Of a stretch of 64,000 nt of DNA, positions 1,774 to 46,494 are shown in pieces (within the stretch, counting starts at the first letter, position 1; the number at the start of each line of letters is the position of its first letter). Under the pieces are notes generated by a model. That model did not search any database. It was not told the DNA's origin and worked only from the letters and a program-made list of their open reading frames with translations. The DNA is taken from positions 80,484 to 144,483 of the forward strand of contig CANFEB010000001.1 in assembly GCA_947445775.1 (NCBI GenBank). The letters run 5' to 3'. Source of the stretch: Oligoflexales bacterium (GTDB lineage: Bacteria > Bdellovibrionota_B > Oligoflexia > Oligoflexales > RGVZ01). The position numbers and the translations under genes are program-made.

Positions 1774-2384
1774 TTTCCTGCAGACCCTGCGATTTTCGCA
1801 TCGTAACATCCCGCGCAGGTGGGCAAATATTTTTCCTCGCAGCCAAGATCCACCACAGACTCCGGGTTTTCCAAATCATCAGGGTCGTTTGAACTTGCGC
1901 CGCCAACGGCGCGGCCCCCGACCATTTTCAGATTATAGACCGCCTTTTTGTTGCAAAAAGCACAAGTCGTCTTCACTTCCTCGATGGCATCGGCAAGTTC
2001 AAGAAGCCTTAGACTTCCGGGGAATAGCCGCCTGCGAAAGTCCGTGCGCAGACCGTAGCAAATAACGGGGACGTTAAAATCTGTGGTGATACGCCGTAAC
2101 TGTTCAATCGCCTGGGGATCAAGAAACTGGCATTCGTCCACGAGCAAGCAGTCAATCCCGCCCAGGAGCGATTCGTTGATTCGCTCACCGGCCGCCAACA
2201 CAATATCAGCCTCTTGTTCTAGGCCGGCCCGCGAACGAACTCGATTAGCGCCAAATCTGGTATCCAAGGCTGGCTTGAGAATCAGAATTCTTTTTTCTTG
2301 TTGCCGGTAGTTGTGGGCCACCGCCAGTAGATTAAGGGTCTTTGCGCTGCCGACTGCACCGTAACGGAAATATAATTTAGCCAT
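1770..2384 (-). CDS. tdk: thymidine kinase
   Basis: ORF 1770-2429. The internal ATG at 2384 gives MAKLYFRYGAVGSAKTLNLL (P-loop). Also LLVDECQF and the C-terminal Zn pairs CAFC / CAGC. The start overlaps the upstream stop by 8 nt. Confidence 0.9.
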   Translation of the reverse strand: MAKLYFRYGAVGSAKTLNLLAVAHNYRQQEKRILILKPALDTRFGANRVRSRAGLEQEADIVLAAGERINESLLGGIDCLLVDECQFLDPQAIEQLRRITTDFNVPVICYGLRTDFRRRLFPGSLRLLELADAIEEVKTTCAFCNKKAVYNLKMVGGRAVGGASSNDPDDLENPESVVDLGCEEKYLPTCAGCYDAKIAGSAGK

Positions 2385-9349: not shown

Positions 9350-10303
9350 TGGGCAGTGCTCATCGACGAAGTTCAAAAGATTCCTGAATTATTAGATGTG
9401 GTTCACCGACTGATTGAAGACAGGGGCATCAAATTTGGGCTTACCGGGTCAAGCGCCCGCAAGCTTAAGCACGGTGGCGCAAATCTTCTCGCCGGTAGAG
9501 CATTTGTCTATAATCTATTTCCCTTCACGTCATTTGAACTCGGTGATTCTTTTCGCCTTGAGGATGCCTTGATGTGGGGCACTCTTCCGAAAATCCATGG
9601 GTTACAAAACGCGGATGATAGAATTCAATATCTCAAATCTTACGCTAATACGTATATTCAAGAAGAGGTTTGGGAGGCTCATCTCATTAAGGATTTAGTC
9701 CCATATCGGCGCTTTTTACAAGTTGCGGCTCAAACCAACGGGGCCGTCATAAACTATTCACACATCTCAAACGACACACGTGTTGACCCCAAAACTGTTC
9801 AACGTTATTTCCAAATCCTTGAGGAAACGTTACTTGGTTTCTTTTTAGAACCATTTCATCGATCCCTTCGAAAGAGGCAGCGTGCCAATCCCAAATTCTA
9901 TTTTTTTGATATTGGCGTCCAGCGCGCGTTGACAGCTGATTTCGCGATCGATTTTGGGCGTGGATCTTTGGGTTTTGGCAATCGATTTGAGCATTTTGTA
10001 ATTTGTGAAATTGTCAGGTTGAATCACTACCATCAATCCCGGTTTGACATTTCATTTATTCGCGAAAATGACGACCTCGAAATTGATGTTGTACTCTCTC
10101 ACCCAACGGGGAAACTTTGGTTCATCGAGATTAAATCGACGGACTTCGTGCAACAAACTCATTGCGAAGCCCTTGAGTATTTCGGCGAAAAATTTCACGA
10201 CGCAAAATGCGCTGTCTGGTCTTGTGACAAAATAGCCAAATCATTTGGAAAAATATCCGCGCTACATTGGCAAAACGGACTTCAGGACGTCTTTGGAATT
10301 TAA
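9350..10303 (+). pseudogene. AAA_14/DUF4143-type ATPase fragment 2 (5'-truncated at Walker B)
   Basis: In the frame of ORF 9260-10303, homology begins at VLIDEVQKIPELL...GLTGSSARKLKHGGANLLAGRAF, with C-terminal LEIDVVL...WFIEIKST (nuclease-like D..E.K). There is no Walker A anywhere upstream. Confidence 0.75.
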
Positions 10304-14165: not shown

Positions 14166-15346
14166 ATGACCTCTCAAATCAAACGAGACTTCAATCTGGC
14201 TTCGAGAATTTCAGTTAAGTCCCTGTTTTTATTCGGACCAAGGGCCACCGGTAAAACCACGCTGATCAAGGAACAACTGACCAGCAAGGTTTTTTTAATC
14301 GACCTTTTGAAATCTAAATATTTCTTGCCACTGAGCCAAAGACCATCTGAATTAATTGAAATGATCCGGGCCGAGAAGCCAGAAATTGTGGTTATCGATG
14401 AAGTGCAGAAGCTACCAATTCTTCTCGACGAGGTGCACAACCTCATAGAATCCACAAACATTCGTTTTCTACTGACTGGCTCCAGCGCTCGGCGACTAAA
14501 GAGACAAAACGCCAATATGCTCGGAGGACGAGCCTCAAAAGCTGCATTATACCCGTTAACGTGGTTTGAACTAAATCGAGATCAGAAATTCGACCTCAAT
14601 CGCTACATTCAATTTGGAAGTCTGCCACGCGTGTATTTTTCTGAGAATCCTGCCGAAGAACTTTATGACTATGTTGATGTCTCTATCTGAAAGATGAAAT
14701 TCAGGCTGAAGCCGCCGTTAGAAATTTACCAGCGTTCAGCAGATTTCTCAAAATTGCCGCACTCAGCAGTGGCGAAGTTTTAAATTACTCAAACGTTGCC
14801 AGCGACGTAGGCCTCTCCGCAAATACGATCCGAGATTATTTCGCTATTTTAGACGACACACTTTTGGGATTTCAACTTGAACCTTGGAAATCCGCAAAAT
14901 CAAGAAAGTCCATCGCCAAAGCAAAACACTACCTGTTTGACTGTGGAGTCTTAAATACACTTTCTGGCAGCAAAAGTGTCGACAGAAACTCAAATATATA
15001 CGGCACTTGTTTTGAACATTTTATTTTGTATGAAATCCGGGCGTATAGTTCTTATCGACAACGGCGTTGGGACTTGAGCTTCTGGCGCACTGAACACGGT
15101 GTCGAAGTCGATTTAATTATCAATGACCACATAGCGATCGAAATTAAATCCACGGTCAATATCACTGCCAAAATGAAGCGCGGCCTTGAAATCATTGCGA
15201 TCGAAGCATCGTGGAACATGCGCATCATGGTAAGTCACGATCCCATCAAAAGGTGCGATGAAAATGGAATTCACATGATCCCGTACCCTGACTTTCTGGA
15301 GACACTCTGGAACGGCGGCTTCGACGACGCTGCAGAAAGCAAATAG
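14166..15346 (+). pseudogene. AAA_14/DUF4143-type ATPase, full length but frameshifted
   Basis: Walker A GPRATGKTT, Walker B VVIDEVQ, C-terminal VEVDLIINDHIAIEIKST. The frame breaks at about 14682 (GTC-TC-TATCTG, an apparent +2 TC). Beyond the break the frame reads YLKDEIQAEAAVRNLPAFSRFLK, continuous with ORF 14864-15346. Confidence 0.8.
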
Positions 15347-15361: not shown

Positions 15362-17572
<2,211 letters not shown>

Positions 17573-20424: not shown

Positions 20425-20456
20425 ATAGCCGCTGGCGCGAAAGTGCCAGCGGCTAT
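20425..20456. terminator. 12-bp perfect hairpin between convergent genes
   Basis: ATAGCCGCTGGC-GCGAAAGT-GCCAGCGGCTAT. It contains the TAG stop (20453-20455) of the 829-aa gene. There is no clean U-run on either side. Confidence 0.45.
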
Positions 20457-22942
20457 TTACTTATTACGTCAAGGCGCCGCAAGTTCAGTGGCACCATGAT
20501 TCTGGAAGCAAGGCCTTGATCTTGGCGCCAGGCACTGTATTCGGCCCCCAACAACCACGCCTCAAAATCACGCAGCACGGGAAGTCCGGTCCGCATTTGT
20601 TGCAAGGACTGCAAGGCTTGACTGTGATCTGGATGGATCAACGTGGTCAGGCGTGCCAGCAATTGCCCCAAAAGAACCTGCGCCTCTTGATCGGTGAAGT
20701 TGCGGCTCTCTTGGGATAAATCTTGCCAGGCAATGCGTTCTTCGGCGGAGAGATCTCGCAACCACCGCGCAACCTTCGAGGTCTGAGCCTTGTATTCAGG
20801 GACTTGAGCCACTCGGGGAATCATCTCTGAAACAAATGAAGCCAGGCGTGTCACCTGCCAGTTCCAGGCACTGATGCCCAGGCGATGCCCCAAAATCACA
20901 TAGAGCAAACCCCAAGCAGATGCCGGAGCAACCTGCACAAACGGAGGCAACGCCACCCCGCCAAACCCAGCTTGTTCGTGAGAGAACCGGTAAAGTTTGG
21001 GGCTCGCCGGCAACCATTTAACAGCCTTCAATGCGCCGTCGACCTGGGTCTCGATCGACCCTGCAGGGGAAGAAATGGATTTCAGAATGCGCGCCCGGCT
21101 GTCAAAGAGGCTGAGCAACTCCGGCAGGCGTGGACCGATGCGCAACAAGGCGCGGAAAAACCTGGCCTCGCGCGGCGCAAGATTTGCCAGAACTGCAGGC
21201 TCGATTGTCGACAAGGGAGACGCTAAAAAAGGGCAGAACCCGCGCTTTTCTCCGGATATCTGGAGCGCATGATGCGCCGCGGGAACAAGCACCTGACGCA
21301 TCGACAATACCGTCGCCACGCGCCATGCCAGGTCGGTTGATTGGGTGGCGTTGGCCGACTGCCAGATGGAATCAAGATCATGATTGGTCAAACCAGCGAC
21401 TGCCGCCTTTTTGAGAATCGCCAGGCGACGGACATCGGGCGATTTTTTTTGGTTTGCAATTCGCTCAAGCTCGTTGAGAACGATCAGAGGCGTGCGCCAG
21501 CTCGTTTTCAAATAACTTTCAATATCGTGGGCACTGAACGAATCGGATTCGCCGGCAATGGTCAATTGCGCCAGCATGGAACGCTTCTCGCCATCACCAG
21601 CCAAGGCATGCCGGGAAACATGGTGCGTCGCGGCCCGTAGCAAATCACTCCAGCGAAATGGCAAGGCAAAGTCGGCATCTGCAGACACATTCATGATCAT
21701 GCGGCGACTCTTCCAAAGGGTCTCCTCATGGCCACTGCCGTGAGCAATATACTGATGAAGCAAGGCAACCCCATGCCACCAGGCATCAAGCAATCTCGTG
21801 GCGTCACCCTCGACTTTGAGGGGGCCCTGCCAGAGCGCAGCATCCAACGGCGCCGGATGAAACGTCAGTGCGTTCGTTTGGAGCGAGGCATAAAGCGCTG
21901 GCAATACGCCGGCGAGGTCGCGATTCAAGACAATCATTTCGGACAACTGCCCCCAAATTTCTGGCAGCTGCGGAAAATTGCCCAACACACCCTTGAGAAC
22001 TTCATTCAGGCGGGCACGTCCTGAATCGCGCGAACCTGCCGATTTTCGGGCTGCGGTTAGGCGCTTGTCGAGAACATCAAAGCGTTGTTGCCAAGTCCCT
22101 TCGGACATTTGGACTTCCAGGGGATCTGCCGCGGCGGCGGGGGTATCTTTTATCGTTTCATTGAGCATGGCAACGGCATCAGGATGGCGCTCGCTTGCGC
22201 GCGAAATCAAGCGGACTAGATCACGGACATCGAAGTCAAAACCAAGGTCCAGTGCAATCCGCGCAGCTTTCAAGACAACATCTTCGTAGGAATTTTCCTG
22301 ACCTGACTCAGAAATTTTGGAGGCTTCAAGAATTGCGGCCCGGTTGGCGCGGAAATACATGAATGCTGGGGATGGGTCAGATCCTCCGCTAAGAAAAAGA
22401 AAGATCACGAGACGCTCGGCGGGCAACAACTGGGCAGCATCCCGTGAACGAACGAGAGTTTCTGCGACTAAATCAAAACGTCCGGCACCCCACGCCATGG
22501 TGGCCAAGCGCTCGCGGACCGACGGGTGCAAGTGAAAATAATAGGCGAAGCGTCCTTCGCGCAAGGTCGCGGCTAGATCCAACAAATCCTGGCGGGTGCC
22601 GTGAATTGCACATAATTCAAGGAAATGCGCCGCCGAAATATCGGCTGGTGCAAGCATGAAAAGGTTCCAGGCGACCGGCTGGAGCTGCGGCCACCTTGCG
22701 CCAGAGTTAATCAGTGCAGACAACACCTTGCGGTGCTGGGCATCGGGCGAAGGTGCAGATGATGGCGAAGCAACTGTTGGTGCTGATGGCGGCGACGTGA
22801 TTATGGGTTGCGCTGCCCGTGGCTTTATTGCGGCCAAGCCGCGTTCAATAACCTCGGCCATCGGCGCACCATTGGCACGCGCCTCACGCAGGATGCGCGC
22901 AAACTGGGTGGCAGACATGTCGGGCTTGTCATGCAAAGGCAT
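20453..22942 (-). CDS. large hypothetical protein (829 aa, predicted helical, no recognised domain)
   Basis: Long uninterrupted ORF with no signal peptide and no motifs I recognise. Confidence 0.5.
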   Translation of the reverse strand: MPLHDKPDMSATQFARILREARANGAPMAEVIERGLAAIKPRAAQPIITSPPSAPTVASPSSAPSPDAQHRKVLSALINSGARWPQLQPVAWNLFMLAPADISAAHFLELCAIHGTRQDLLDLAATLREGRFAYYFHLHPSVRERLATMAWGAGRFDLVAETLVRSRDAAQLLPAERLVIFLFLSGGSDPSPAFMYFRANRAAILEASKISESGQENSYEDVVLKAARIALDLGFDFDVRDLVRLISRASERHPDAVAMLNETIKDTPAAAADPLEVQMSEGTWQQRFDVLDKRLTAARKSAGSRDSGRARLNEVLKGVLGNFPQLPEIWGQLSEMIVLNRDLAGVLPALYASLQTNALTFHPAPLDAALWQGPLKVEGDATRLLDAWWHGVALLHQYIAHGSGHEETLWKSRRMIMNVSADADFALPFRWSDLLRAATHHVSRHALAGDGEKRSMLAQLTIAGESDSFSAHDIESYLKTSWRTPLIVLNELERIANQKKSPDVRRLAILKKAAVAGLTNHDLDSIWQSANATQSTDLAWRVATVLSMRQVLVPAAHHALQISGEKRGFCPFLASPLSTIEPAVLANLAPREARFFRALLRIGPRLPELLSLFDSRARILKSISSPAGSIETQVDGALKAVKWLPASPKLYRFSHEQAGFGGVALPPFVQVAPASAWGLLYVILGHRLGISAWNWQVTRLASFVSEMIPRVAQVPEYKAQTSKVARWLRDLSAEERIAWQDLSQESRNFTDQEAQVLLGQLLARLTTLIHPDHSQALQSLQQMRTGLPVLRDFEAWLLGAEYSAWRQDQGLASRIMVPLNLRRLDVISK

Positions 22943-23096: not shown

Positions 23097-23882
23097 ATGC
23101 TGCCATATCCGGACATTGACCCTGCAATCTTTACCATCGGCTGGTTTCAACTGCGGTGGTATTCCCTGATGTACATCATCGGCCTTGTTGCCTCGTTTCT
23201 ATTTCTACGGCGCGCGGCACGGAATGGCAGACTTCAGATGACCGACGAACAGATCGAAACCAGCCTCGTTTACGCGTTGATTGGAATGATCCTCGGTGCC
23301 CGCATCGCCTACGTCTTCATCTACAACTTCGATTACTACCGCAATCATTTGAGTGAAATGCTCATGATCTGGCAGGGTGGACTGTCATTCCACGGTGGTT
23401 TTGTCGGCTTGATCACAGGTCTGTTCATTTTTTGCCGCCTCAATAAAATCGAATACCTGAATGTTACCGACAACGTTGCTGCGATCATTCCCGTCGGCCT
23501 CGGTTTCGGCAGGCTTGGAAACTTCATCAACGGCGAATTGTGGGGGCGGGTAACGGATGTTCCCTGGGCGATGGTATTTCCAACTGGCGGACCACTTGCA
23601 CGGCATCCATCACAAATTTATGAGTCGTTTCTCGAAGGCTGGTTTTTGCTGGCACTGACGCTGTTCGTATACTCGCGAAAACCAAAAACCGGGGTGGTGT
23701 CAGCAACTTTTATCCTTGGTTATGCAAGCTTCAGATTCATTGGGGAATTTTTCCGCGAGCCCGACGCACAGCTCGGCACAGTCCTTGGTCCCTTTTCAAT
23801 GGGTCAGGTCCTGTGCGCCGTGATGTGGCTGTTTGGAGCTTTTATCTTTATGTTGTCCCAGTCAAAGACCCGGCGAGCCTGA
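23097..23882 (+). CDS. lgt: prolipoprotein diacylglyceryl transferase
   Basis: 261 aa. WQGGLSFHGGF and GRLGNFINGELWGR. Confidence 0.9.
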   Translation: MLPYPDIDPAIFTIGWFQLRWYSLMYIIGLVASFLFLRRAARNGRLQMTDEQIETSLVYALIGMILGARIAYVFIYNFDYYRNHLSEMLMIWQGGLSFHGGFVGLITGLFIFCRLNKIEYLNVTDNVAAIIPVGLGFGRLGNFINGELWGRVTDVPWAMVFPTGGPLARHPSQIYESFLEGWFLLALTLFVYSRKPKTGVVSATFILGYASFRFIGEFFREPDAQLGTVLGPFSMGQVLCAVMWLFGAFIFMLSQSKTRRA

Positions 23883-24800
23883 CGCGGGTGCTGGAGCAGC
23901 AACTGGCGCTGGCGCTGGAGCAGTAACTGGCGCGGATACTGGCGCTGGAGCAGTAACTGGCGCGGACGCCGGCGCAGCAACTGGCGCGACAGCCGGTTTT
24001 GCGGCCGGATCGACCGCACCCAAGGCAGCAGATTTAGCAGATTCCTTTTCAACGGGAAGATCATCTTTCGGCAGACCTTTGCAATCAGCAAATTCCTGCC
24101 GCAACGATGAGTTCATCTCCTTGAGCAAGTCGTATTCCTTGCCCGACCGAACCCGACCAAAATACTCACTCAACTTCACCGACTTATCGGCACTCATAGT
24201 TTCAAGGATCAACGTCACTTGCTTCTGACGCAGGCGCTTGAACATGGCAACCACGAGGTCGTCATCCATCTTTTCGAATACTGGGGCGGCCTTTTTTGGC
24301 TCCATCTTGTCGTACAACTGCACGAGTTTATCGAGGCGTTCGCCCTTCAAATCCTTTTCTTGCTGAATATTCTGGGCGAAAAACTTGCGTTCCTCCTCCA
24401 GACGTTTCAGCTTGCCGTCGATCGACTGTTCAAGACCCTGAAGTTGCTTTTCGCGTTTTCCAAGCAGCATGACTCGTTCATCGATTTGCTTTTTTTTGCG
24501 GTCCGCCATGGACAGATAGCGGGCCACGTCTTCTTTCTGCAACTTATCCCGATTAAGGGTCGGCAGCTCTAATAAATCATCGAGAAAACTTTTGCGACCA
24601 GCGTCAGCCGGCGCGGCGCCCTGCGCGCTGCCGCCACCTACTGGATCACCGCTGCCCGCAGCATGCAGGTCCGCCTCGCCAAAATGAAGATAGCCTGATT
24701 GGACTGCCAAAAAAACGCCCAGAAGACCGACCTTCGCGCCGGCAACCCATTTGATCCAGGCAGGAAACCCGCTGCGAGACTTTTCAAATACATGAATCAT
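23862..24800 (-). CDS. flagellar MotE/FlbB/YlxF-like protein (MgtE_N-type domain) with an Ala/Pro-rich tail
   Basis: KLVQLYDKMEPKKAAPVFEKMDDDLVVAMFKRLRQKQVTLILETMSADKS. Sits after fliJ, as ylxF does in fla operons. Its 3' end overlaps lgt by 21 nt. Confidence 0.65.
   Translation of the reverse strand: MIHVFEKSRSGFPAWIKWVAGAKVGLLGVFLAVQSGYLHFGEADLHAAGSGDPVGGGSAQGAAPADAGRKSFLDDLLELPTLNRDKLQKEDVARYLSMADRKKKQIDERVMLLGKREKQLQGLEQSIDGKLKRLEEERKFFAQNIQQEKDLKGERLDKLVQLYDKMEPKKAAPVFEKMDDDLVVAMFKRLRQKQVTLILETMSADKSVKLSEYFGRVRSGKEYDLLKEMNSSLRQEFADCKGLPKDDLPVEKESAKSAALGAVDPAAKPAVAPVAAPASAPVTAPAPVSAPVTAPAPAPVAAPAPASGSPGL
23887..23994. repeat. degenerate ~30-bp tandem array (2 near-perfect units plus partials)
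   Basis: GGCGCTGGAGCAGTAACTGGCGCGGA occurs at 23911 and 23941. Encodes (APVTAPAPVS)n in the MotE-like tail. Confidence 0.75.
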
Positions 24801-24806: not shown

Positions 24807-25256
24807 TTACCTCGAATTCAAGAATCTACGGAGTGCAATGTCGTCATGGCCCTTTTGCTCATTGCGAGAAATTTCCTTTTTAAATCTTTCGCGATGGGTT
24901 TCCTGGAGTTTCTCTACCGCACTGAGTTCACGCTGGACAATGTTGACCCGCATCACTTGGGCCTGTTCAGCAAGGTCCGCCTCTTTGAGCCTCTGAAAAA
25001 AAACAAATAGAGTCTCACGTGCGTGATCAACGGCCGCCTCAAGAGCCAACAGCATCGGCCGTTCTACCGACTCGCGTTCCGCATTCAATCGCGTCACGCC
25101 GTTCAAATACTTTTGCTGCCAGGCCATCAATTCCGATTCCAACTTGACCTTCTCGCGCAAAATCGCTGCCAGTGCGACGGCTTCGGCATCTACCCGTGTT
25201 TTTTTTATGTCCAACACTGGCACGAGCCGGGCAATTTTTTTAAGATGCTTCTGCAT
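24807..25256 (-). CDS. fliJ: flagellar export chaperone FliJ
   Basis: 149-aa coiled-coil protein immediately downstream of fliI. Confidence 0.55.
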   Translation of the reverse strand: MQKHLKKIARLVPVLDIKKTRVDAEAVALAAILREKVKLESELMAWQQKYLNGVTRLNAERESVERPMLLALEAAVDHARETLFVFFQRLKEADLAEQAQVMRVNIVQRELSAVEKLQETHRERFKKEISRNEQKGHDDIALRRFLNSR

Positions 25257-25289: not shown

Positions 25290-26663
25290 TTACATTCGGC
25301 CAGCCAAAATCCCGCGCACCGCAACCAGTGCCTCATCAAAGGTCGAAACCTCATCGATATCCTGACGCAAAAAACGTTCAATCTGCGGCATCAATTGAAT
25401 GGCCAGATCAAGCTGAGGATTTGTTCCCTGCTGATACGTTCCGATCTGAATGTAATCGTAATTTTCTTCGTAAACACCCAACAGCGACCGCAGTTTGTTG
25501 GCGATCGCCCAATGATCCTTCGAAACAATGTCGAACATGACGCGGCTGGCACTTGTCGGGACATCGATAGCCGGAAAATGGCCCTTGGACGCCAAGGATC
25601 TTGACAGGTTGATGTGGCCATCAAGGATTGATCGGGCAGCATCTGGAATCGGGTCGTTGAAGTCATCGCCGTCGACAAGGACGGTATAAAGTCCACTGAT
25701 ACTTCCTGAGCCTTCTGGCATTGGCCCGCAACGCTCCAATAGTCTTGGCAGCAATGAAAACGTCGACGGCGGATAGCCCTTGGTCGTGGGCGGTTCACCG
25801 ACAGCTAGACCAATTTCACGTTGCGCCATGGCCACGCGGGTCAGAGAGTCCATCATCAATAGAACGCGTTTACCTTGAGCGGCAAAATACTCAGCGATTG
25901 CCGTCGTCAGCTTTGCCCCACGTAGGCGCATGAGGGGAGATTGATCTCCCGTCACCACCACCACCACAGATCGTGCCAGGCCCTCTGGGCCCAAATCGCG
26001 CTCAAGAAATTCCCTGACTTCCCGACCGCGCTCACCGATCAAACCAATCACGTTGATGTCGGCAGACGATCCCCGGGCAATCATGCCCATCAACACGGAT
26101 TTACCGACCCCAGAGCCGGACATGACGCCAATGCGCTGCCCCTCGCCAAAGGTCAAAAGACCATCCATGGCGCGAATGCCCAGGGTCAAGTGACGATCAA
26201 TCCTCTTTCGTTCCATCGGGTTAGGCGCCGCTCGATCCAACGGCACCGTGGCGCATGACCCCGGAATGGCCACCCCCAATTTTCCCGTGAGCGGTTGCGC
26301 CATCGGATCAATGACCTTACCAATAAGATGATCGCCAACCACAACATTGTCAAAACGGTGGATTGCGGTCACGGCGCAACCAGGAGCAATGCCGCCAAGG
26401 TTGTTGTAGGGTAAAATCAGAGAACGATCCCCGTGGAAGCCGACCACTTCACCCAAAACCTCTCCCTGTTGGCCACCAATGGCAATGGAGACAATCGTCC
26501 CCAACTGAGATCCGGGCAAAAAAGCCTCAATGACGGTACCGACAACATCGCAAACCTTGCCGCGGGGATCCCAGTTGATATGGGAAAATGAACGGGCCAG
26601 ATCACCCCGAGAAAATTGCCGCAGATTCACTGAATTTTTTGCGCTGTCTTCCACTGGCATCAA
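25290..26663 (-). CDS. fliI: flagellum-specific ATPase FliI
   Basis: Walker A GSGVGKSVLMGMI and Walker B LLMMDSLTR. ATGA overlap with fliH. Confidence 0.95.
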   Translation of the reverse strand: MMPVEDSAKNSVNLRQFSRGDLARSFSHINWDPRGKVCDVVGTVIEAFLPGSQLGTIVSIAIGGQQGEVLGEVVGFHGDRSLILPYNNLGGIAPGCAVTAIHRFDNVVVGDHLIGKVIDPMAQPLTGKLGVAIPGSCATVPLDRAAPNPMERKRIDRHLTLGIRAMDGLLTFGEGQRIGVMSGSGVGKSVLMGMIARGSSADINVIGLIGERGREVREFLERDLGPEGLARSVVVVVTGDQSPLMRLRGAKLTTAIAEYFAAQGKRVLLMMDSLTRVAMAQREIGLAVGEPPTTKGYPPSTFSLLPRLLERCGPMPEGSGSISGLYTVLVDGDDFNDPIPDAARSILDGHINLSRSLASKGHFPAIDVPTSASRVMFDIVSKDHWAIANKLRSLLGVYEENYDYIQIGTYQQGTNPQLDLAIQLMPQIERFLRQDIDEVSTFDEALVAVRGILAGRM

Positions 26664-27964
26664 CTCGCTTTCCCGGTCTTATCGTCTTTGGCAAACAACG
26701 TGACATCGGCCTGGCTGAGAAGATTCTTCACCATCTTTTTTGCCTGGACATCCACCACACTCAACTGGGATTCGAGGCGGAATTCCCACGGAGCAATATT
26801 TTGGTCCTTAACCAAGTGAGTTTCCAGATCCTTGATGCCAGCTTTTGCCATGGCGTCAGCCGTTTCTGGATTCACGCGAATTTTGAACTGGTCGCCCTTA
26901 ACAGTTTCCGAGACGGCCTTACGCATGATCGTTGCAAATGAATCTGGGCGGATCTCGAATTCGCGCTCCAAAAGCGCCTCGCCCATGGCCTGGCAAAGAT
27001 CAAAAAAGTTCTGCTGAACATTGTCCAGAATCTGACCTTTCAAGGACTCAAACTCCCGGATCAACTCGGTAGCCCGACCGAAAAACTGACTAGCAGTCTG
27101 ACGCGCGCCTAATTCACCCTTTTCCTCGCCAGTTCTGAAACCCGTCTGATAGCCTTCCTGGAACCCCGCGTCCTGTCCGGTTTTACGTCCCTCTTGTTCG
27201 GCAGCATCCTTGGCCTCGGCCACAGCCTTAGCCATCTCGCCCTCCATCTCCTTACGGACTTTCCAGGCTTCGGCCGCCGTCTTCTCAACCGTGTTTGCCG
27301 ATTCACCTTCGCCACCAGAAGTTGCGAGAGGAATGAAGGAACCTGATCCCACGGCTGTGGTTTTCGTCTTTTCATCGCGATTGATGCGAAATGATCCTGC
27401 CTCGCGCTCGAGCGAGGTAACCTCCTGGCGGGGGGTATCCGAAGCCTCTTTCGCACCCTCAGCGGTCTCGGACCAGCCATCTACCGCTGATGTCGCGGCA
27501 GTGGATGGCGCAGCCTCGGATGATGATGCCCCAAAATCCTGTGGGCTCGCATGGCCCGCCGAATCACCCTCACCAAAGATCATTGCAAGCTGGCGCTGGC
27601 CCTCGTCACTAAGTTCCATGGCGTCGTCACCTCGTCCTATCCGGCGCCGCCGACCGGTTGAGGGAGAAATGGCGTCACTCCATTCCGGCGTAAAATCGAC
27701 CGGCTTGATGATAAACCGGTCGCCGTCTTGCGACTTCAACGCCTGATCAAATTTTGGATGCACCAAGACCGTTTTCTTCAAATCCGCATCGGTGTGCAGG
27801 CGGGCATGAATGATGGTCGAGTCCTCATTGTCAAATGAGGCCATGGGTGTCGGGCAGATCTCTTCAAACGAATAAGCGACCACCGCAACATGTTTGATTA
27901 ACCGGTCATTGGCCTTGATGAAGCGGCCCGCTCGTTTTTGACCATCCGTGTTCATCGTTGCCAT
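26660..27964 (-). CDS. fliH: flagellar assembly protein FliH with a ~230-aa N-terminal extension
   Basis: C-terminal ~200 aa: GFQEGYQTGFRTGEEKG...FKIRVNPETADAM...RLESQLSVVDVQAKKMVKNLL. ATG at 27964 (M4 of the ORF). Confidence 0.65.
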   Translation of the reverse strand: MATMNTDGQKRAGRFIKANDRLIKHVAVVAYSFEEICPTPMASFDNEDSTIIHARLHTDADLKKTVLVHPKFDQALKSQDGDRFIIKPVDFTPEWSDAISPSTGRRRRIGRGDDAMELSDEGQRQLAMIFGEGDSAGHASPQDFGASSSEAAPSTAATSAVDGWSETAEGAKEASDTPRQEVTSLEREAGSFRINRDEKTKTTAVGSGSFIPLATSGGEGESANTVEKTAAEAWKVRKEMEGEMAKAVAEAKDAAEQEGRKTGQDAGFQEGYQTGFRTGEEKGELGARQTASQFFGRATELIREFESLKGQILDNVQQNFFDLCQAMGEALLEREFEIRPDSFATIMRKAVSETVKGDQFKIRVNPETADAMAKAGIKDLETHLVKDQNIAPWEFRLESQLSVVDVQAKKMVKNLLSQADVTLFAKDDKTGKAS

Positions 27965-27969
27965 GATGA

Positions 27970-29586
27970 TCAAGCCCCCTGGTTAGGAGTAAGGATCATT
28001 CTGATGGCCTCAACGGTCCGCTTGGGATCGTTCTTGGCCACGTACATGATTTGGTCTTGAGGCGTCATTTTATCAAAAGGCACTTCTTCTTTAACGTGGA
28101 GCGACTGGACCATGGACTGCTCTAGATCGGGCCTGTACTCCTCGATCACGGTGGCCTGGTGTTTGCGTTCATTATCGTAAGTCAACCAGCGGAAGTAGGG
28201 GCGTACTATAAAGGCAAAAAACAGAATCAACGAAACAGCAACCGCTATTGAAGTCGCAATGGTCGAGAAATATTCCCGCTTTTCTTGCGTCTCCATTGAG
28301 ATGACCTGGCGCTGTGCATTGTCGAGCTGAAACATCATGTTGGAAACTTGAACTTCATCGCGACCGTCTTTGAATCCCATGGCGCGCTTGACTAGTTCTT
28401 CAAGCTTTTTCATTTCCTCATCTGATCGCGGGTCAAATGCCGGTTTTACCCCATCACCAATAACCTCTTGTTTTCCGTCAACTAGAACTGCCGCTGTAAG
28501 GCGCCGAACGGTTCCAACAGGCATCAGCTTTTTGCTGACAGTCTTGGAGACTTCAAAGTTCACAAGTTCAGAGTCACGTTTATTTGAGGACGAATTTCCC
28601 GAACTGGACGGGGTTTCTTGTTCTCCCGGAACGTTGGACTTGCTTCCCGGAATGCCGGTCGGATTTAGCCCAGCCCCTTGCATGGCTTCCCCCGATGTGT
28701 TCCGGGAAACCACCGCTGTCTTGTCAGGGTCAACATCAGAGATGGTTTGCTCTTCTTGGGTAAAATCCACGGTGGCATCCACCTTGGCATCCACGCGGTC
28801 GTGACCAACGACCTTGCCAACGATGGAACGAATTTTTTCCTCGATCTCCCGTTCGACGGCCTGCTTATAGGCCAGCATTTCTTTGGTCATCTTGGTGGCA
28901 AAGTCCTCGGATTCAATCTTGGTCAGGAGCTTTCCCTCCTGATCGATAATGGAAATATTGTTGGGCTTAAGGCCCTCTACCGCCCGGGAAACAAGATGCT
29001 GGATGCCCCGAATTTGCTTTTCTTCAAGGGAAGATCCCCGTTTGCTCTTGATGTAGACAGACGCCGTGGGTTCTTTTTGCTCCTGCACAAACACCGATTG
29101 CTTTGGCAAGACAATATGCACGCGCGCCGAGTTGATGCCGTCAATTGACATTATGGTCCGAGATAGTTCACCTTGAATGGCCCTAAGCCGGTTGATCTGC
29201 TGTTCGAATTCTGTTCGGGCAAACTCTTGTTTGTCAAATTTTTCCCAGCCGACTACGCCATGCGCCGGAAGGCCTTCTTGGGAAAGTTGCAGGCGCAGGC
29301 TAAGTACGCGCTCTCTGGGGACCTTAACACCCTTGGAATCAACGACAAAATCATTGACCCCATTGCGCTTGAAGTGTTCCACGATGGCCTGAGAGTCCTC
29401 GGCGCTTAGGTCGATAAAAACATACTCGTACGGATCCTCACGCCCGGTGATCAAAAGCCCGGCCATAACCGCGAGCAACGCTGCCGCAATGACCCCGACG
29501 GTCATTTTGCGGGGCATTGACTGCGCATTCCAGAACGCGCTCGTCTGGGCCCAAACTTTGATGATGAAATCGCGAAGATTATTCAC
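27970..29586 (-). CDS. fliF: flagellar M-ring protein FliF
   Basis: 538 aa with an N-terminal TM segment, a YscJ/FliF-like region (LSAEDSQAIVEHFKRNGV...) and a C-terminal TM. Confidence 0.85.
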   Translation of the reverse strand: MNNLRDFIIKVWAQTSAFWNAQSMPRKMTVGVIAAALLAVMAGLLITGREDPYEYVFIDLSAEDSQAIVEHFKRNGVNDFVVDSKGVKVPRERVLSLRLQLSQEGLPAHGVVGWEKFDKQEFARTEFEQQINRLRAIQGELSRTIMSIDGINSARVHIVLPKQSVFVQEQKEPTASVYIKSKRGSSLEEKQIRGIQHLVSRAVEGLKPNNISIIDQEGKLLTKIESEDFATKMTKEMLAYKQAVEREIEEKIRSIVGKVVGHDRVDAKVDATVDFTQEEQTISDVDPDKTAVVSRNTSGEAMQGAGLNPTGIPGSKSNVPGEQETPSSSGNSSSNKRDSELVNFEVSKTVSKKLMPVGTVRRLTAAVLVDGKQEVIGDGVKPAFDPRSDEEMKKLEELVKRAMGFKDGRDEVQVSNMMFQLDNAQRQVISMETQEKREYFSTIATSIAVAVSLILFFAFIVRPYFRWLTYDNERKHQATVIEEYRPDLEQSMVQSLHVKEEVPFDKMTPQDQIMYVAKNDPKRTVEAIRMILTPNQGA

Positions 29587-29597: not shown

Positions 29598-29951
29598 TCA
29601 GACAGGCATCCGCATAACTTCTTGGTACGCTTCAAGGGCACGATTTCTGACTTGGACCATGAGATTGAAGGTCAGCTCTGCCGTCGATGTGGCGAGCATG
29701 GCCTCATGCAGATTCTCAGACTTTCCCGTAGCCACCGCCGTGGTCATCTTGTCTGCTGTCTTGGCACTTTCATTGACCTCAGAGACGCGGGCTTGCAACT
29801 GGTCAAAAAAAGACATTTTTCCGGTGGAAGCCGGAGTGTCCTGCTGAACAGGGGACGGCATGCCCGTCGTTGGACCTTCGCGACGGATTTCATTGAACCT
29901 CGCGAACAGGTCTTCTGCTGCTTTCGCTGAAATTGACATTTGTGAAGCCAT
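29598..29951 (-). CDS. fliE: flagellar hook-basal body protein FliE
   Basis: 117 aa. C-terminus TAELTFNLMVQVRNRALEAYQEVMRMPV. Confidence 0.75.
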   Translation of the reverse strand: MASQMSISAKAAEDLFARFNEIRREGPTTGMPSPVQQDTPASTGKMSFFDQLQARVSEVNESAKTADKMTTAVATGKSENLHEAMLATSTAELTFNLMVQVRNRALEAYQEVMRMPV

Positions 29952-29973: not shown

Positions 29974-30417
29974 TCAACGACCAATTTCCAGAGCCTTCAT
30001 CGCCATTTGCTTGGTTTCATTCAATGCGGTTGCATTCGCCTCATAGGCGCGCGTTGCCGAAATCATGTTCACCATTTCACTCATCACTTGAACGTTGGGC
30101 ATTTCAACGTAGCCATCAAGATCTGCATCTGGGTGCGACGGATCAAGAACCCGTCTCGGTGCGCCTTGATCCTGGTGGATTCCCGTCACTTGCACTTTGG
30201 CAAGCTTTGCATTGTAGGTTCCATCAAGGTAATCGCCGAACTGATCGCCCGTCGGTTTTGCCGTAAAAATAACGTCGCGGCGGCGATAGGCTCCGCCCTC
30301 TTCCGTGCGAGTCGTTTGGGCATTTGCCAGGTTAGTGCTTAATACGTTCATGCGCAGGCGTTGCGCCGACAGTGCGGACGAGCTAATCGCCATCGACTTG
30401 AAGGTGCTCATGCTCAA
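29974..30417 (-). CDS. flgC: flagellar basal-body rod protein FlgC
   Basis: LSAQRLRMNVLSTNLANAQTT; 147 aa. Confidence 0.9.
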   Translation of the reverse strand: MSMSTFKSMAISSSALSAQRLRMNVLSTNLANAQTTRTEEGGAYRRRDVIFTAKPTGDQFGDYLDGTYNAKLAKVQVTGIHQDQGAPRRVLDPSHPDADLDGYVEMPNVQVMSEMVNMISATRAYEANATALNETKQMAMKALEIGR

Positions 30418-30839
30418 CGGCCTCCACTGATGGCATACCGGAGCATGCCGAGTTTACGATTCAAAGTCTCCACGGATGCCCGGTACAAAATCTGGTTCTC
30501 AGAGAACTGGGCCATTTCCGTGTCGATGTCCACCGTGTTGCCATCGTGCGCTACAGATTCTGTTGGCCTGACGAAGACGTCTGGCCTGATCGTTCCGTCG
30601 GCCTGAGTGAAAGCGTTATGCAAATGTTTGGGGTTGTTGGTGCGAACTGGGATAGCCTCGCTGCCACCAGTCACTTCTTGCAGCTGCTTTTCAAAGTCAT
30701 AGCCAAGGGCGCGAAATCCCGGTGTCTCTGCATTGGCAATGTTGCTGGTGATCACCTGGCTGCGTCGCATCCGGTGACCCAATGCCGCGACTTGCACCTT
30801 GTCATTGAAATCGAACAAGCTATTAATGGCTTGGCTCAA
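30414..30839 (-). CDS. flgB: flagellar basal-body rod protein FlgB
   Basis: SQVITSNIANAETPGF; 141 aa; 4-nt overlaps on both sides. Confidence 0.85.
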   Translation of the reverse strand: MSQAINSLFDFNDKVQVAALGHRMRRSQVITSNIANAETPGFRALGYDFEKQLQEVTGGSEAIPVRTNNPKHLHNAFTQADGTIRPDVFVRPTESVAHDGNTVDIDTEMAQFSENQILYRASVETLNRKLGMLRYAISGGR

Positions 30840-31960
30840 GTTGCCCTCCCTGTCAGCGGTGCGATCACGTCGATCCCTTCCGCTGAAAACTCATTGATCT
30901 TATTGCGCAACGTGCGAAGGCTGATTCCAAGCGTCTTGGCTGCGTGAGTCCGGTTGCCCTGATGATGCTCAAGGGTCCGCAAAATGAACTGAGTCTCGAC
31001 AGCCTGCAGGGTCCGTCCGACGGGAAGGGCTTCAATCCATGCGTTGGCTGCGGAGTCTTGAAGGCCACCAACTCCCTCAAAGCCGAGGTCCACAGCCTGA
31101 ATGACGTCCGTTGTAGAAGTAACCACCGCGCGCTTGATGACATTCTGCAGCTCACGAACGTTGCCCGGCCATGTGTAGGCGCGCAAGGCCTTGCGAGCAT
31201 CGTCAGTAAGGCGAACGGGACTGCGCCCGGCCGCAATGCATTCTTTTTCAGCAATATGTTGCGCGAGCGCCTCAATGTCTGCCGGGCGTTGGCGTAGGGC
31301 CGGAACTTCGATGTGAAGGACATAAAGTCGGTAGTACAGGTCCTGCCTGAATTCACCCCTGGCAACCATTGCCATTGGGTCGACGTTGGACGTGGCAATG
31401 ATGCGGCCATTGAGAGAAACGTCGGAGTTGCCACCAAGACGGCGGACTTTGCGCTCTTCAATGACTCGCAGCAATTTTGACTGATTGCCAGCATCTATAT
31501 TCGTGACCTCATCCAAGAGTAGCGTGCCATTGTTGGCGCTTTCAACGAGTCCAATCCGGTCAGCAATGGCACCAGTGAAGGCTCCCCTTTGGAAACCAAA
31601 AAGTTCACTTTCAAACATCGTTGACGGGATTGCAGAACAGTTCACTGCAACAAACGGACCAGCAGAAAATACTGACCGGGCATGAATGTACCGGGCAATT
31701 GTTTCCTTGCCGCAACCCGACTCACCAGTGATTAGAACTGGTAGGTTAACGGCTGCAATCTGGTCGGCAATTTCTTTGATACGGCGCATGGCTGGATCGG
31801 CAACAAGCCAACCACCATCGCAAATGAACGACTCGATGGGCGCGGGGGCTGCTTGCTTAGCCCGCGCATAGTCGACATAGGTAGCAGCAGATTCTGGCTG
31901 GCCAGCCGGCCTGGAACCTGCCTGCGAAACAAGATCTTTACGAAGGGCTACGTTGTTCAT
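30836..31960 (-). CDS. sigma54-dependent transcriptional activator (AAA+ plus HTH, no receiver or sensor domain)
   Basis: LITGESGCGKE, ELFGFQRGAFTGA (GAFTGA), LLLDEV, C-terminal HTH NRTHAAKTLGISLRTLRNKI. Only about 55 aa precede the AAA+ core. Confidence 0.85.
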   Translation of the reverse strand: MNNVALRKDLVSQAGSRPAGQPESAATYVDYARAKQAAPAPIESFICDGGWLVADPAMRRIKEIADQIAAVNLPVLITGESGCGKETIARYIHARSVFSAGPFVAVNCSAIPSTMFESELFGFQRGAFTGAIADRIGLVESANNGTLLLDEVTNIDAGNQSKLLRVIEERKVRRLGGNSDVSLNGRIIATSNVDPMAMVARGEFRQDLYYRLYVLHIEVPALRQRPADIEALAQHIAEKECIAAGRSPVRLTDDARKALRAYTWPGNVRELQNVIKRAVVTSTTDVIQAVDLGFEGVGGLQDSAANAWIEALPVGRTLQAVETQFILRTLEHHQGNRTHAAKTLGISLRTLRNKINEFSAEGIDVIAPLTGRAT

Positions 31961-32024: not shown

Positions 32025-34334
32025 CTATTTCTTCTGGATCTGGGTCAGCCTTTCGGTGGCCAGATTTGCATAAAAAAGATTGTTGCCATCAGCCTTAGCC
32101 TTCTCAAGTGCAGCCACGGCCTCATCCTTGCGGCCGGCCCGGTAGAGCAGCAAGCCGGCTTTGTAGAGCGTCTCTGCGCGTCCCTCCCAATTTTCGCTTT
32201 CGGCGGCAACTAGGCTGAAAATGCGACCGGCATCTAGGTATTCATTGTCCTTGCGGTATTCCTCGCCCAGCTCCAACAACTGGTCCATCCAGGCTTTACG
32301 CGCCGCCTTGTCATCGCCAAATTGAGATGGTTTCATCTCACGCAACATATCCAGAGCAGCGCGGCGCTCTTTTTCCATTCCAAGAACAGAAAATCGCGCG
32401 GCAAGACTGGAAATCAATTTTGCAGAAGCCGCCGATGGCGCGAATTCATTTTTGAGGTCCGGAGTCGCCGGTCCAGTCGATGTTGTTTGGCGGGCGCTGA
32501 AATTATCCTTCCATGACGACAGAATCAATTTGGCAGGGGTGCGCAATTTGGCGGCCAAGCCGAGTGATGACTCCAGTGGCTGGCGAAAGGCTGCATACAA
32601 CTGTTCGCGCTCTGTTGGTTTGAGCCCTGCCAAGGTGGCCGCCATTGCGCGGTCAGCTTCGATCATGTGGCGGTTGAAGGGAGAGATCTTAGTCTGACCT
32701 GATTTGATGCGAGTCAATAATTCAACGGATTCAGACGCCGTTTGGGCCAACCAGAATTGCGCCTTGAAACGGTCAACTCCCGTGCCTTCCTTGGCAGCCG
32801 AATCGTAGAAGTCAACGGCGGCTTGGGGCTGACCAATGCTTCGGTATGACTCGCCAAGTGCCCAGGCCGTCTTAGGGTTTTTGCGGACCGATTGCAGGGG
32901 TCTTGGCAACAATTCAAAAGTCTGTACGGCCTCCACATGACGCCCTGCCAGCGATTGCTCCTGAAGCAATCCATCCAGACGAAGGCGCAGGCGCGTCAAG
33001 AGTTCAGCGCGCATCGGATCAAATTCTGCGGTTTTGTAATCACGAAAATAATTTGCGGCGAAGTTTCCAGCATCCACCGTCCAATTGCGACGACTATCTA
33101 GGCGGGCGGCCAACAAGAGGGATGCCGTCAAAAATCTTGTCCTAGGATGAGTCAGACTAGGAAATGCTGATTCAAGATCACGGACCTCCATCTCGTCCAG
33201 TTCGGGAATTGGTGATTTAGTTTTCGCAGAGGCGTTACGCCAAAAAGATGTTCTAAGGACTTTGCCGGCCCGATAGTCTGGGGAGGCCGTCGCAACGTCG
33301 AGTGCTGCCAATGCCGGGGCAACTTTTGGCAAAATATCAGTTTCGCCAGCGATTGCGGCCTCCGTGGCGTGGACGTCGATCAGACGCATGGCGGCCAGGG
33401 AATGAAACGGCGTGCCTGGAAATCGTTTCGTGATCGTGTCGTAATAGCCGCCGGCTAAAGATAAATTCCCCTGGCCAAGGTGGATCTCCGCCATGCGCCA
33501 AAGGCTGGCCGGGTCCCGTTCAATCGCTAGCGGATCATGGAATAGCAGTTGCTGATAGACGGACATCGACCGGAGCTCTTCGCCGTTGGCAAACAGGTCC
33601 GCGGCGAGGTCCGACAAACCTTTTGTCGATGCCATGGCCTTGGCACATGCCTCCACCGGAATTTCGCCGGCGTACTTGGATTTTGCGGTAAGGGAGTCAA
33701 ATCGGTAAACGGGATCGCTCAAACGATCCCACGAAGCGGCGCGACCGGGCTTGGCCTGTTTCAACTGGCTGCACAGGTCAGCCGCATTTTCGAACTTTTT
33801 TGGGGCAGGCTGAAAAATTCTGCGCTGAGAGGCCGGTTCTGTTGGTTTCGCGGCAGGCACATTCTGCGCAAGGGCCGGTTTGAGGTCATTGCCCGTCACT
33901 GGCAACCCATCTGTGGTTCGTGCTGGGGTGTATCCCCGTTTGAAAATCGCGACCACGAGCCGAAATGGCTCCTCGAAATCATTGACCGTTGCGACGACAT
34001 CGCGAGACTTCAGCTTCATCATGATCTCGACACCATCAGCGCCTCTGTCTTTGACCAGAAGGCGGCGAATGAGGTCCTCGTCGTAGCGCTCAAGGGCTTG
34101 CAATTCTGTCGATGAGGTTTTTAGGATTTCGATCCTGACCGTGTTTTCGACTGCGTCATACTTCGCCGTGTAGGGGCGGGTGTCGGGAAAGGGCAGGACA
34201 ATCTCCGAATAATCGGCTGCGATCGCGGGGGCACTTTGCAGACAAAGCACCATTGCAGTCACCGGCGCCAGAGCTTGGGACGCAAAGCGCAGGGTTTTAA
34301 CATGGAGAATCCATGACCGTGAACGGGAGCCCAT
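32025..34334 (-). CDS. secreted TPR-repeat protein (769 aa) heading the flagellar cluster
   Basis: Signal peptide ...SAPAIA-AD and an N-terminal beta-module (possibly AMIN-like, PFRLVVAIF). TPR-like C-terminus (AETLYKAGLLLYRAGRKDEAVAALEKA). Confidence 0.6.
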   Translation of the reverse strand: MGSRSRSWILHVKTLRFASQALAPVTAMVLCLQSAPAIAADYSEIVLPFPDTRPYTAKYDAVENTVRIEILKTSSTELQALERYDEDLIRRLLVKDRGADGVEIMMKLKSRDVVATVNDFEEPFRLVVAIFKRGYTPARTTDGLPVTGNDLKPALAQNVPAAKPTEPASQRRIFQPAPKKFENAADLCSQLKQAKPGRAASWDRLSDPVYRFDSLTAKSKYAGEIPVEACAKAMASTKGLSDLAADLFANGEELRSMSVYQQLLFHDPLAIERDPASLWRMAEIHLGQGNLSLAGGYYDTITKRFPGTPFHSLAAMRLIDVHATEAAIAGETDILPKVAPALAALDVATASPDYRAGKVLRTSFWRNASAKTKSPIPELDEMEVRDLESAFPSLTHPRTRFLTASLLLAARLDSRRNWTVDAGNFAANYFRDYKTAEFDPMRAELLTRLRLRLDGLLQEQSLAGRHVEAVQTFELLPRPLQSVRKNPKTAWALGESYRSIGQPQAAVDFYDSAAKEGTGVDRFKAQFWLAQTASESVELLTRIKSGQTKISPFNRHMIEADRAMAATLAGLKPTEREQLYAAFRQPLESSLGLAAKLRTPAKLILSSWKDNFSARQTTSTGPATPDLKNEFAPSAASAKLISSLAARFSVLGMEKERRAALDMLREMKPSQFGDDKAARKAWMDQLLELGEEYRKDNEYLDAGRIFSLVAAESENWEGRAETLYKAGLLLYRAGRKDEAVAALEKAKADGNNLFYANLATERLTQIQKK

Positions 34335-34392: not shown

Positions 34393-34408
34393 AGCAAGGG
34401 TCGTGCCA
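34393..34408 (-). promoter_or_regulatory. sigma54 (-24/-12) promoter
   Basis: Minus strand reads TGGCACGACCCTTGCT, an exact match to TGGCACG-N4-TTGCW. The GC element lies about 60 nt upstream of the TPR gene ATG (34334). Confidence 0.75.
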
Positions 34409-45437: not shown

Positions 45438-46494
45438 CTAAAACCCACAGTCCTTCAACATATCTTGCCAAGGCATGATTTCGATACCATCGCGGTGTAA
45501 ACGCTCGGTCCCCTGATAGGCGACGATGGCGCGATGGGGTTTTCCATAATAGCGCGCGAAACTTGCGAGCCCCGTCAGATCCGAGTCGCCAATATTTCTT
45601 GTGGCTTTGATCTCTAGGGCGATGGTCTCGGTGGGGCGCTCAATAATTAAATCAACTTCAGCGCCATGCTCGGTTCTATAACTGGAAAGCCTCACGCCAA
45701 TTTCATCGCGCGCAGAGATGCTGTGCAAAATCTGGGTAACGACAAGAGTCTCAAAAAGCGTTCCCTTGCGGTCATCACTCACAATGAAGTTACCCAACAA
45801 ACCATTGAGTACTCCGGTATCAAAAAAGAAATATCTGGGATGCTGAACCAAACGCGTGCGCGTGGATTTTGCGAACGCTTCCAATCGATGAACAATCAAC
45901 GTGTCCTCGAGGATCTCAAAAAACCGACGTGCAGTCTGGTGGTTCACCTGAGCCTGTATCGCAAGTTTTTGAATATCTAAAAATTGGCTGGACGTTACCG
46001 CGGCGAATTTTAGAAATCGCGCAAATCCCTCAATATTTCTTGTAAGCGCCTCTGCCTGAATCTCCTCTTTCAGATAAGTCGCCGCATAGGAAGAAAGCGT
46101 TTTAATTTTATCCCTCTCGCTATCCTCGGTATATATCCCCGGCAGCGAACCAAACGCCATCAACGCATTTTCATTCGCCTGGTAATTGAGTTCAGCGGCT
46201 ACGAGTGGCCCCATTGCGAAGGCATGAATGCGCCCGGGCAACAAATTGGCTTGTCCCCGCCGCAGCTTTCGCGCGCTGGACCTCGTCAATAAACACGATT
46301 TGATCGCGGTTTTTGGGATTACTCCGTTGCTCTAATCGCCTCGGATCCGCCGCATAGTCAAGATACTCTCCCTCGTGGGCAAGATTGATCTTCAGTGCAT
46401 TTGGAAAGATTTGACCCAAAAGAGTGGACTTGCCAGTCTGCCTGGGACCAAAAATTAATGGGCTTTTTTTTGGGCGCTTTACACGTCGTGTTGA
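45438..46494 (-). pseudogene. AAA_14/DUF4143-type ATPase, decayed (5' stop, internal out-of-frame deletion)
   Basis: Walker A LIFGPRQTGKSTLL (46423-46449) lies downstream of an in-frame TAA (46495-46497). FIDEVQR is joined directly to ARKLRRGQANLL at about 46272, with roughly 25 codons missing and a frame change. C-terminus AEVDLIIERPTETIALEIKAT. Confidence 0.75.

Follow-up and report, generated by a model that had tools for sequence, protein, structure and literature searches.

In model organisms, the C-terminal cytoplasmic tail of the MS-ring protein FliF binds the FliG_N domain. The fliG gene need not lie beside fliF for this: in Rhizobiaceae, it is found with motA-fliM-fliN and not next to fliF, a precedent for relocation without a change in motor architecture. 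The canonical block is fliE-fliF-fliG-fliH-fliI-fliJ, as in E. coli, in two control loci from other phyla (L037 and L038), and in the clusters compared in PMC12827227. Work on Salmonella has shown that FliH uses Trp7 and Trp10, at its extreme N-terminus, to bind FlhA as well as a hydrophobic patch on FliN, and that FliH2-FliI is thereby brought to the C-ring and export gate (PMC4185386). The N-terminus of FliH shows little conservation across bacteria as a whole, but it is conserved within bacterial groups (PMC2674601). The DNA analyzed here, 64,000 nucleotides of contig CANFEB010000001.1 from an Oligoflexales bacterium (hereafter the window; Oligoflexales is an order of Bdellovibrionota), carries a flagellar operon with the same genes in the same order as the canonical block except for fliG. 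Unlike that block, it has no fliG and only 5 nt between fliF and fliH, fliK-flgD form a unit of their own, and a tetratricopeptide repeat (TPR) protein gene and a receiver-less FlbD-like activator gene head the operon behind a sigma-54 promoter consensus. Together with the unusually long FliH that it encodes, the locus represents an operon rearrangement shared by the whole clade, for which other bacteria provide precedents, combined with a conserved, uncharacterized N-terminal module of FliH.

The minus strand, which carries the whole operon, was read directly across the junction. The fliF stop codon (27972-27970) is followed by a 5-nt spacer (27965-27969), with no room for a gene, and then by the fliH ATG at 27964 (...ACT CCT AAC CAG GGG GCT TGA tcatc ATG GCA ACG...); a Shine-Dalgarno-like AGGGGG run lies within the 3' end of fliF. 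The fliF gene (27970-29586, 538 amino acids) matched PF01514 at 3.5e-58 and PF08345 at 1.1e-36, and fliH (26660-27964) encodes 434 amino acids from its ATG, or 437 from an upstream TTG at 27973. The 434-residue form is identical to database protein P0001, which is found on several metagenome contigs, and no identical database record was found for the 437-residue TTG form. At its other end, the fliH stop codon overlaps the start of fliI, the export ATPase gene (25290-26663; PF00006, PF18269, and PF02874), over positions 26660-26663, as it does in all relatives.

FliG was sought in the window in three ways. A Pfam scan of about 50 of the larger open reading frames (ORFs) gave no match to PF01706, PF14841, or PF14842; tblastn with E. 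coli FliG (from NC_000913) found nothing in the 64 kb; and the same was true of a hidden Markov model (HMM) made from three divergent FliGs, those of E. coli and the control loci L037 and L038, and run without filters (--max) against all six-frame stop-to-stop segments of at least 50 amino acids. Because these searches recovered FliG in both controls, at E values of 1e-50 to 1e-173 and between fliF and fliH, they are sensitive across phyla. The first-pass annotation of the window, made by a model from the sequence alone, had placed fliF and fliH 5 nt apart with fliG missing from its canonical slot, and had seen no FliG-like ORF anywhere in the window; the junction sequence bears out the first statement, and the Pfam, tblastn, and six-frame HMM searches, with their controls detected, bear out the second.

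The family alignment was scanned against one genome per GTDB species, yielding 31 loci. An Oligoflexales-type long FliH was present at 29 of them, mostly titled Oligoflexales, Pseudobacteriovorax, or Oligoflexus, and a few with evidently loose labels of metagenome-assembled genomes (MAGs). Every gene table inspected had the order (TPR)-sigma54 activator-flgB-flgC-fliE-fliF-fliH-fliI-fliJ-MgtE_N, with no gene intervening between fliF and fliH. Because this order is kept from 100% to about 28% FliH identity, and also in P0203, the most divergent family member found, the arrangement is clade-wide and not peculiar to one genome; it is ancestral to a large, diverse clade and is the standard layout of the whole order Oligoflexales, as judged from the 29 Oligoflexales-type genome loci together with metagenome contigs. 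In the comparison of operons across relatives that had been suggested as a check, the gene order was constant, and tblastn and the HMM detected no fliG within ±10 kb of the related loci examined; the contexts of 8 FliH relatives, 3 FlgD relatives, and the 31 genome loci showed none over ±10 kb. FliG was likewise not seen in about 700 kb of Oligoflexales sequence around two flagellar loci. The best 120 FliF search matches were all Oligoflexales-type, at 58% identity or more, and none from an outgroup was among the matches listed. In a comparison of flagellar clusters from Bdellovibrio and Bacteriovorax isolates, the figure legend names FliG with FliF and FliH (PMC12827227); on the strength of that legend, an operon that has lost fliG appears to be the derived state in the phylum.

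Some of the loci bear names from outside the order. Locus L036 (CAYOEM010000036.1), from a MAG titled 'uncultured Polynucleobacter sp.', contains a complete Oligoflexales-type operon with a 423-amino-acid long FliH and a FliF tail of the same pattern as in the rest of the clade; mis-binning of the contig is the probable reason. Two other MAGs, labeled 'Bdellovibrio sp. ZAP7' (L016) and 'Pseudobdellovibrionaceae' (L032), may have been named just as loosely.

Two candidates for a disguised FliG were considered. The only marginal matches to the FliG HMM (E 0.01-10) were MgtE_N proteins encoded after fliJ in related loci, MgtE_N proteins and FliG being members of the same Pfam clan. The MgtE_N protein was rejected as a cryptic FliG; it has an N-terminal membrane anchor, its matches were only marginal and at clan level (E at least 0.01), and it occupies the MotE/YlxF/FlbB position, as in canonical clusters. 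The N-terminal half of FliH was rejected as a decayed FliG, as it gave no match to the FliG HMM and its AlphaFold2 (AF2) fold was not ARM-like helical.

Flagellar genes are generally scattered in these genomes. Some 35 kb away from the fliF operon, the window has a separate mini-operon (62552-64000, minus strand) made up of flgD and the 3' part of fliK, a gene that is cut off by the right edge of the window; flgD has FlgD Pfam matches, and the gene upstream of flgD in the identical contig L041 has a Flg_hook/FliK match. These two genes also stand alone in the complete O. tunisiensis genome and on a closer relative's 290-kb contig, lying each time between rplU-rpmA-obg and RNase G. The gene normally next after flgD is flgE, but the window, O. 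tunisiensis, and the 290-kb contig all lack it at that place. A small conserved gene without a family match comes after flgD, encoding 297 amino acids here and 178-274 in relatives. None of fliM, fliN, flhA, flhB, fliPQR, flgE, or motAB is in the window. Because flagellar genes are dispersed, and fliM, fliN, flhA, and others are missing along with fliG, the absence of fliG from 64 kb is no evidence that it is absent from the genome.

FliF itself argues for a FliG partner. Both YscJ/FliF ring-building domains (PF01514 and PF08345) are present, together with a conserved C-terminal cytoplasmic tail (27973-28092, minus strand; ...PQDQIMYVAKNDPKRTVEAIRMILTPNQGA) that is the putative FliG-binding segment. 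Although the overall identity of 28 FliFs of the clade is only 50-62%, their last ~35 residues hardly vary and are the best-conserved part of the protein in the clade. Their consensus, …VPFEKLxPxEQIMYLAKNEPKRTTEAIRMLLNP…, aligns with the E. coli tail SDNDPRVVALVIRQWINND (…MSDNDPRVVALVIRQWINND), and FliG binding is predicted. The tail is under strong purifying selection, and a conserved binding partner is therefore implied. An FD111-like Oligoflexales algal predator bears a single flagellum, as seen by transmission electron microscopy (PMC12865303), and the FD111 MAG has the long FliH (L033). From the clade-wide layout, the scattering of flagellar genes, the conserved FliF tail, and the flagellum on this predator, we infer that a normal fliG most likely lies at another place in the genome and that its product still links FliF with the C-ring. 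The first-pass suggestion of an unusual FliF/FliH interface, or of a motor without the normal FliG bridge, thus finds no support in a layout that is standard for the order, in genomes with scattered flagellar genes, and beside a FliF whose tail is conserved.

The long FliH is composed of three parts, of which the C-terminal half is the familiar one. PF02108 matched only residues 300-413 (38.2 bits against a cutoff of 24.1), and seven NCBIfam FliH models aligned with residues ~176-418, all far below their equivalog cutoffs. A short conserved F-x-P motif (FIPL, residues ~206-216; 27317-27349, minus strand) lies just before a long helix; F210 and P212 are invariant in alignment A1, and FxP is still the majority in alignment A2. 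The helix (26951-27298), which includes a GxxxG repeat (GFQEGYQTGFRTGEEKGELGA), spans residues 223-338 in the AF2 model with a predicted local distance difference test (pLDDT) score of 80-96. Residues G275 and G279 are near-invariant in an alignment of 147 sequences, and a glycine repeat of this type has been described for FliH (PMC2674601). Next in the model is a small alpha/beta domain (pLDDT 80-97 for helix and domain together), corresponding to the C-terminal globular domain (26681-26950; Pfam FliH and Foldseek) that binds FliI in model organisms. The top Foldseek matches in the PDB were the Salmonella FliH chains of 5B0O (probability 1.00, E 3e-3), followed by V/A-ATPase stalk E subunits; template modeling (TM) scores were low owing to the long helix. 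Taking together the Pfam and NCBIfam alignments, the GxxxG repeat, the AF2 model, the 5B0O match, and the overlap with fliI, the C-terminal half is a bona fide FliH, canonical over residues ~220-428.

Upstream of this core, residues 1 to ~220 had no match in Pfam, in NCBIfam, or, by profile search, among PDB sequences. The region divides into an N-terminal module (residues ~11-98; 27671-27934, minus strand), carried by 142 representative clusters and recognized by its conserved columns (GRFIK...F.F.EI...DN...IIH..LH...P.DFT..W), and a variable low-complexity linker (residues 99-205; 27350-27670). A phmmer search with FliH residues 1-105 against 1.84 billion representative proteins returned 142 proteins, in which, a few repeat-protein false positives and fragments aside, the match fell at residues ~1-100 of proteins 370-490 amino acids long. 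As the matches are all at the N-terminus of proteins of this length, the module is confined to the Oligoflexales-type FliH family and always N-terminal. G13, D45, N46, and T92 are invariant across the 147-sequence alignment, and K17, H57, P88, D90, F91, and W95 are present in at least 90% of its members; the consensus is G(R/K)FIKK…V…FSF.EI……DN….IIH..LH…L…V………L……RP.I.P.DFT.DW. Pairwise identity averages 35% over the module (residues 11-98), 35% over the FliH C-terminal domain, 36% over the long helix, and 17% over the linker. The linker consists of 50% S/A/G/T/P, 18% D/E, and 12% K/R, with pLDDT below 50, and the distance between the motifs that flank it varies from 111 to 222 amino acids across the family. 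AF2 gave the module a pLDDT of 40-60 when 26 sequences were supplied and of 85-97 (residues 11-100) with 147. No PDB fold was matched by the module using Foldseek; matches to the RNase E catalytic domain (probability 0.1-0.4, TM ~0.1) were weak and were disregarded. Judged by these alignments, the module is conserved, uncharacterized, and clade-specific.

The first-pass annotation had already described a 434-residue FliH in which only the last ~200 residues are FliH-like, preceded by ~230 residues made up of a short structured-looking segment and an acidic, low-complexity stretch. Both descriptions were accurate, the Pfam and NCBIfam matches placing the canonical part as given above and the alignment separating a conserved module from a variable linker. 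Among the things that would speak against its reading, it had named an extension that is common and disordered in ordinary FliH orthologs of the clade; common it is, but its first ~95 residues are as conserved as the FliH core. The N-terminal region, for which it had recommended structure prediction, is divided in the AF2 model, with high pLDDT over the module and low pLDDT over the linker.

The best explanation of the whole, to which we assign a probability of about 0.75, is an ordinary class-II Oligoflexales flagellar operon from which fliG has moved out and whose FliH has a lineage-specific docking end. Under this explanation, fliG would have left an ancestral fliF-fliG-fliH block in Oligoflexales, and fliH would be translationally coupled directly to fliF as a consequence. 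The C-terminal half of FliH, with its GxxxG repeat, long dimerization helix, and globular FliI-binding domain, would tether the FliI ATPase as in other flagella. The N-terminal half may be an elaboration, specific to this lineage, of the FliH segment by which FliH2-FliI docks on FliN and FlhA in Salmonella; the near-invariant DFTxxW aromatic/acidic motif would then play the docking role, and the flexible low-complexity linker would hold the ~90-residue module at a variable distance from the core. By this analogy, the module is a candidate for the C-ring/export-gate docking end of FliH.

Several points weigh against this explanation. FliG was not located in any Oligoflexales genome within the ±10-kb contexts, and its presence is a deduction. 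One paper remarks that FliG is found only in B. bacteriovorus (PMC13147790); the remark appears to be annotation-based, is unsupported in the text of that paper, and fits poorly with the legend in PMC12827227, although nothing here refutes it. O. tunisiensis, the type species, is described as non-motile (PMC4179278), and a working flagellum is therefore not required in every member. The NCBIfam FliH models detected no homology of the module to known FliH N-termini, and what favors a docking role is only the position of the module in the protein and the analogy with Salmonella. Finally, the AF2 model of the module has little regular secondary structure (four short helices by DSSP) despite its high pLDDT. 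As a separate matter, FliG annotation in Bdellovibrionota is seemingly unreliable, PMC13147790 and PMC12827227 being hard to reconcile, and our literature search found nothing specific on Oligoflexales flagellar genes.

It is possible, but we think unlikely, that the module is instead a new motor anchor for FliH, contacting the FliF C-terminal tail, FliG, or a clade-specific C-ring component, with loss of fliG functionally linked to it and the ATPase mounted differently. Every locus seen does have both the module and the fliF-fliH adjacency, translation of fliH is coupled to that of fliF, and the module is strongly conserved, family-restricted, and without a match to known families. The co-occurrence carries little weight, however, because it may stem from a single ancestral event. 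In addition, the FliF tail retains the pattern of a FliG-binding tail, and neither the FliG HMM nor Foldseek revealed similarity of the module to any FliG or FliF-binding domain. We are similarly doubtful that the ~90-residue module is an undescribed folded docking domain that arose with the removal of fliG and whose partner is not the FliN patch but the FliF tail, FliG, or a clade-specific C-ring or cage component. Were that alternative partner real, these predatory bacteria would have a differently wired switch/export interface.

To our knowledge, FliG is needed for flagellar assembly and torque in every studied system, which counts against a further proposal, namely that Oligoflexales lost FliG, or replaced it by an unrecognizable protein, and that motor and export work without a canonical FliG. 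We consider this very improbable. The failure to find FliG in the ~700 kb of Oligoflexales sequence and the remark in PMC13147790 are what it can call upon, but the sequence examined makes up only a small part of genomes several megabases in size, and fliM, fliN, flhA, flhB, fliPQR, flgE, and motAB are missing from it as well; moreover, the FliF tail is under strong purifying selection, and a flagellum has been seen on an Oligoflexales predator (PMC12865303). Least credible of all is that the long ORF is an artefact of mis-assembly, of a frameshifted fusion of a decayed fliG with fliH, or of an over-extended start codon: its N-terminal half does lack a database family, but the conservation of the architecture across the family (373-486 amino acids in 147 diverse sequences from independent assemblies, with the module starting within ~10 residues of the start codon in all 147, no FliG HMM match to the region, and an AF2 model of the module that is not ARM-like helical) effectively refutes it.

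Like FliH/SctL proteins (PF02108; Salmonella FliH, 5B0O), the Oligoflexales protein has a C-terminal ~210 residues with a GxxxG repeat, a long helix, and an alpha/beta domain, its gene is directly upstream of and overlaps fliI, and its N-terminal region is distinct from the core, as in all FliH. It differs in length, at 434 amino acids versus 228 in E. coli and 273 and 324 in the two control loci, and in having the ~90-residue module, conserved in ~140 clusters, plus a linker of 110-220 residues. Unlike Salmonella-type FliH, it has no Trp-x-x-Trp at the extreme N-terminus but a near-invariant DFT-x-x-W at residues 90-95 and a conserved GRFIK. The placement of fliG in Rhizobiaceae concerns a different lineage and a different destination. 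The FliH N-terminus decides the position of the export ATPase in the motor and is poorly understood outside enteric bacteria; a well-conserved, unannotated ~90-residue module at this position throughout an order of freshwater bacteria, most of them uncultured and some of them preying on algae, offers a defined target for study. For annotation, a fliG missing beside fliF in Oligoflexales should not be taken to mean that FliG is absent, and current FliH family models score the FliH of this order far below equivalog thresholds.

The remaining genes of the operon were assigned as follows, all on the minus strand. At its head, a -24/-12 promoter consensus of the sigma-54 type (TGGCACGACCCTTGC, 34394-34408) lies 60 nt upstream of the TPR protein gene; no other site in the window fits TGGCAC-N5-TTGC without a mismatch, and ~0.12 exact matches would be expected by chance in 2x64 kb. 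The TPR gene (32025-34334; TPR Pfam matches) encodes 769 amino acids with a signal-peptide-like N-terminus, and related loci also have a TPR gene, of 750-860 amino acids, at the operon head. Other elaborate motors also have TPR proteins, and by analogy with those this one could serve as a scaffold of the motor in the periplasm. The FlbD-like sigma-54 activator (30836-31960; Sigma54_activat, AAA_lid_14, and HTH_8 in Pfam) has no receiver domain, its residues 52-372 aligning with positions 121-452 of the 454-position NCBIfam FlbD model. The two proximal rod genes are flgB (30414-30839), identified by its conserved position and by Flg_bb_rod in orthologous gene calls, and flgC (29974-30417), with Flg_bb_rod and Flg_bbr_C in identical gene calls; fliE (29598-29951) matched PF02049 at 5.4e-27. 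Downstream of fliI, fliJ (24807-25256) was assigned by its conserved position and by a match to PF02050 (8.9e-6) that, at 26.4 bits, is slightly below the 28.4-bit cutoff. As the sole perfect promoter match sits 60 nt upstream of the TPR gene, the sequence suggests that the TPR gene, the activator gene, and the genes from flgB to motE form one sigma-54-dependent operon that encodes its own activator.

The last gene of the operon (23862-24800) encodes a MotE/FlbB-like, membrane-anchored MgtE_N protein (PF03448 at 1.1e-6, and a weak match to the NCBIfam collar_FlbB model). It has the same position after fliJ in all relatives, and a MotE/YlxF-type MgtE_N gene likewise comes next in Bacillus-type and Bdellovibrio-type clusters. 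The protein ends with a repetitive tail rich in Ala and Pro (…APVAAPASAPVTAPAPVSAPVTAPAPAPVAAPAPA…), and its gene and lgt, which lies on the opposite strand, overlap at their 3' ends. Just past lgt, downstream of the flagellar operon, is an 829-amino-acid ORF (20453-22942, minus strand) with no Pfam or NCBIfam match; a counterpart of 837 amino acids is at the same position in a relative with 57% FliH identity, and it is not there in more distant relatives.

Elsewhere in the window are an HrpB-like DEAH helicase gene running off the left end (1-1875, minus strand) and genes for a 726-amino-acid protein with two cyclic nucleotide monophosphate-binding domains (5615-7795, plus strand), a KatG-type catalase-peroxidase (15362-17560, minus strand), and a PilZ-domain protein (46597-47604, minus strand); these four have no established link to the fliF-fliH arrangement. 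Between the flgD unit and RNase G, the minus strand at 59417-61563 carries a gene for an AAA_14 ATPase (406 amino acids) and an HNH-endonuclease-like gene that are not at the syntenic position in O. tunisiensis or the 290-kb contig (L042 and L043) and look like an insertion. Copies or fragments of AAA_14/DUF4143 ATPase genes were found at 8683-10303 and 14166-14690 on the plus strand and at 45438-46289 and 60343-61563 on the minus strand. Some of them are in patches of lower guanine-plus-cytosine content (0.45-0.47 at 8-12 kb and 0.48 at 14-16 kb, versus ~0.54 elsewhere), which suggests mobile or recently acquired DNA.

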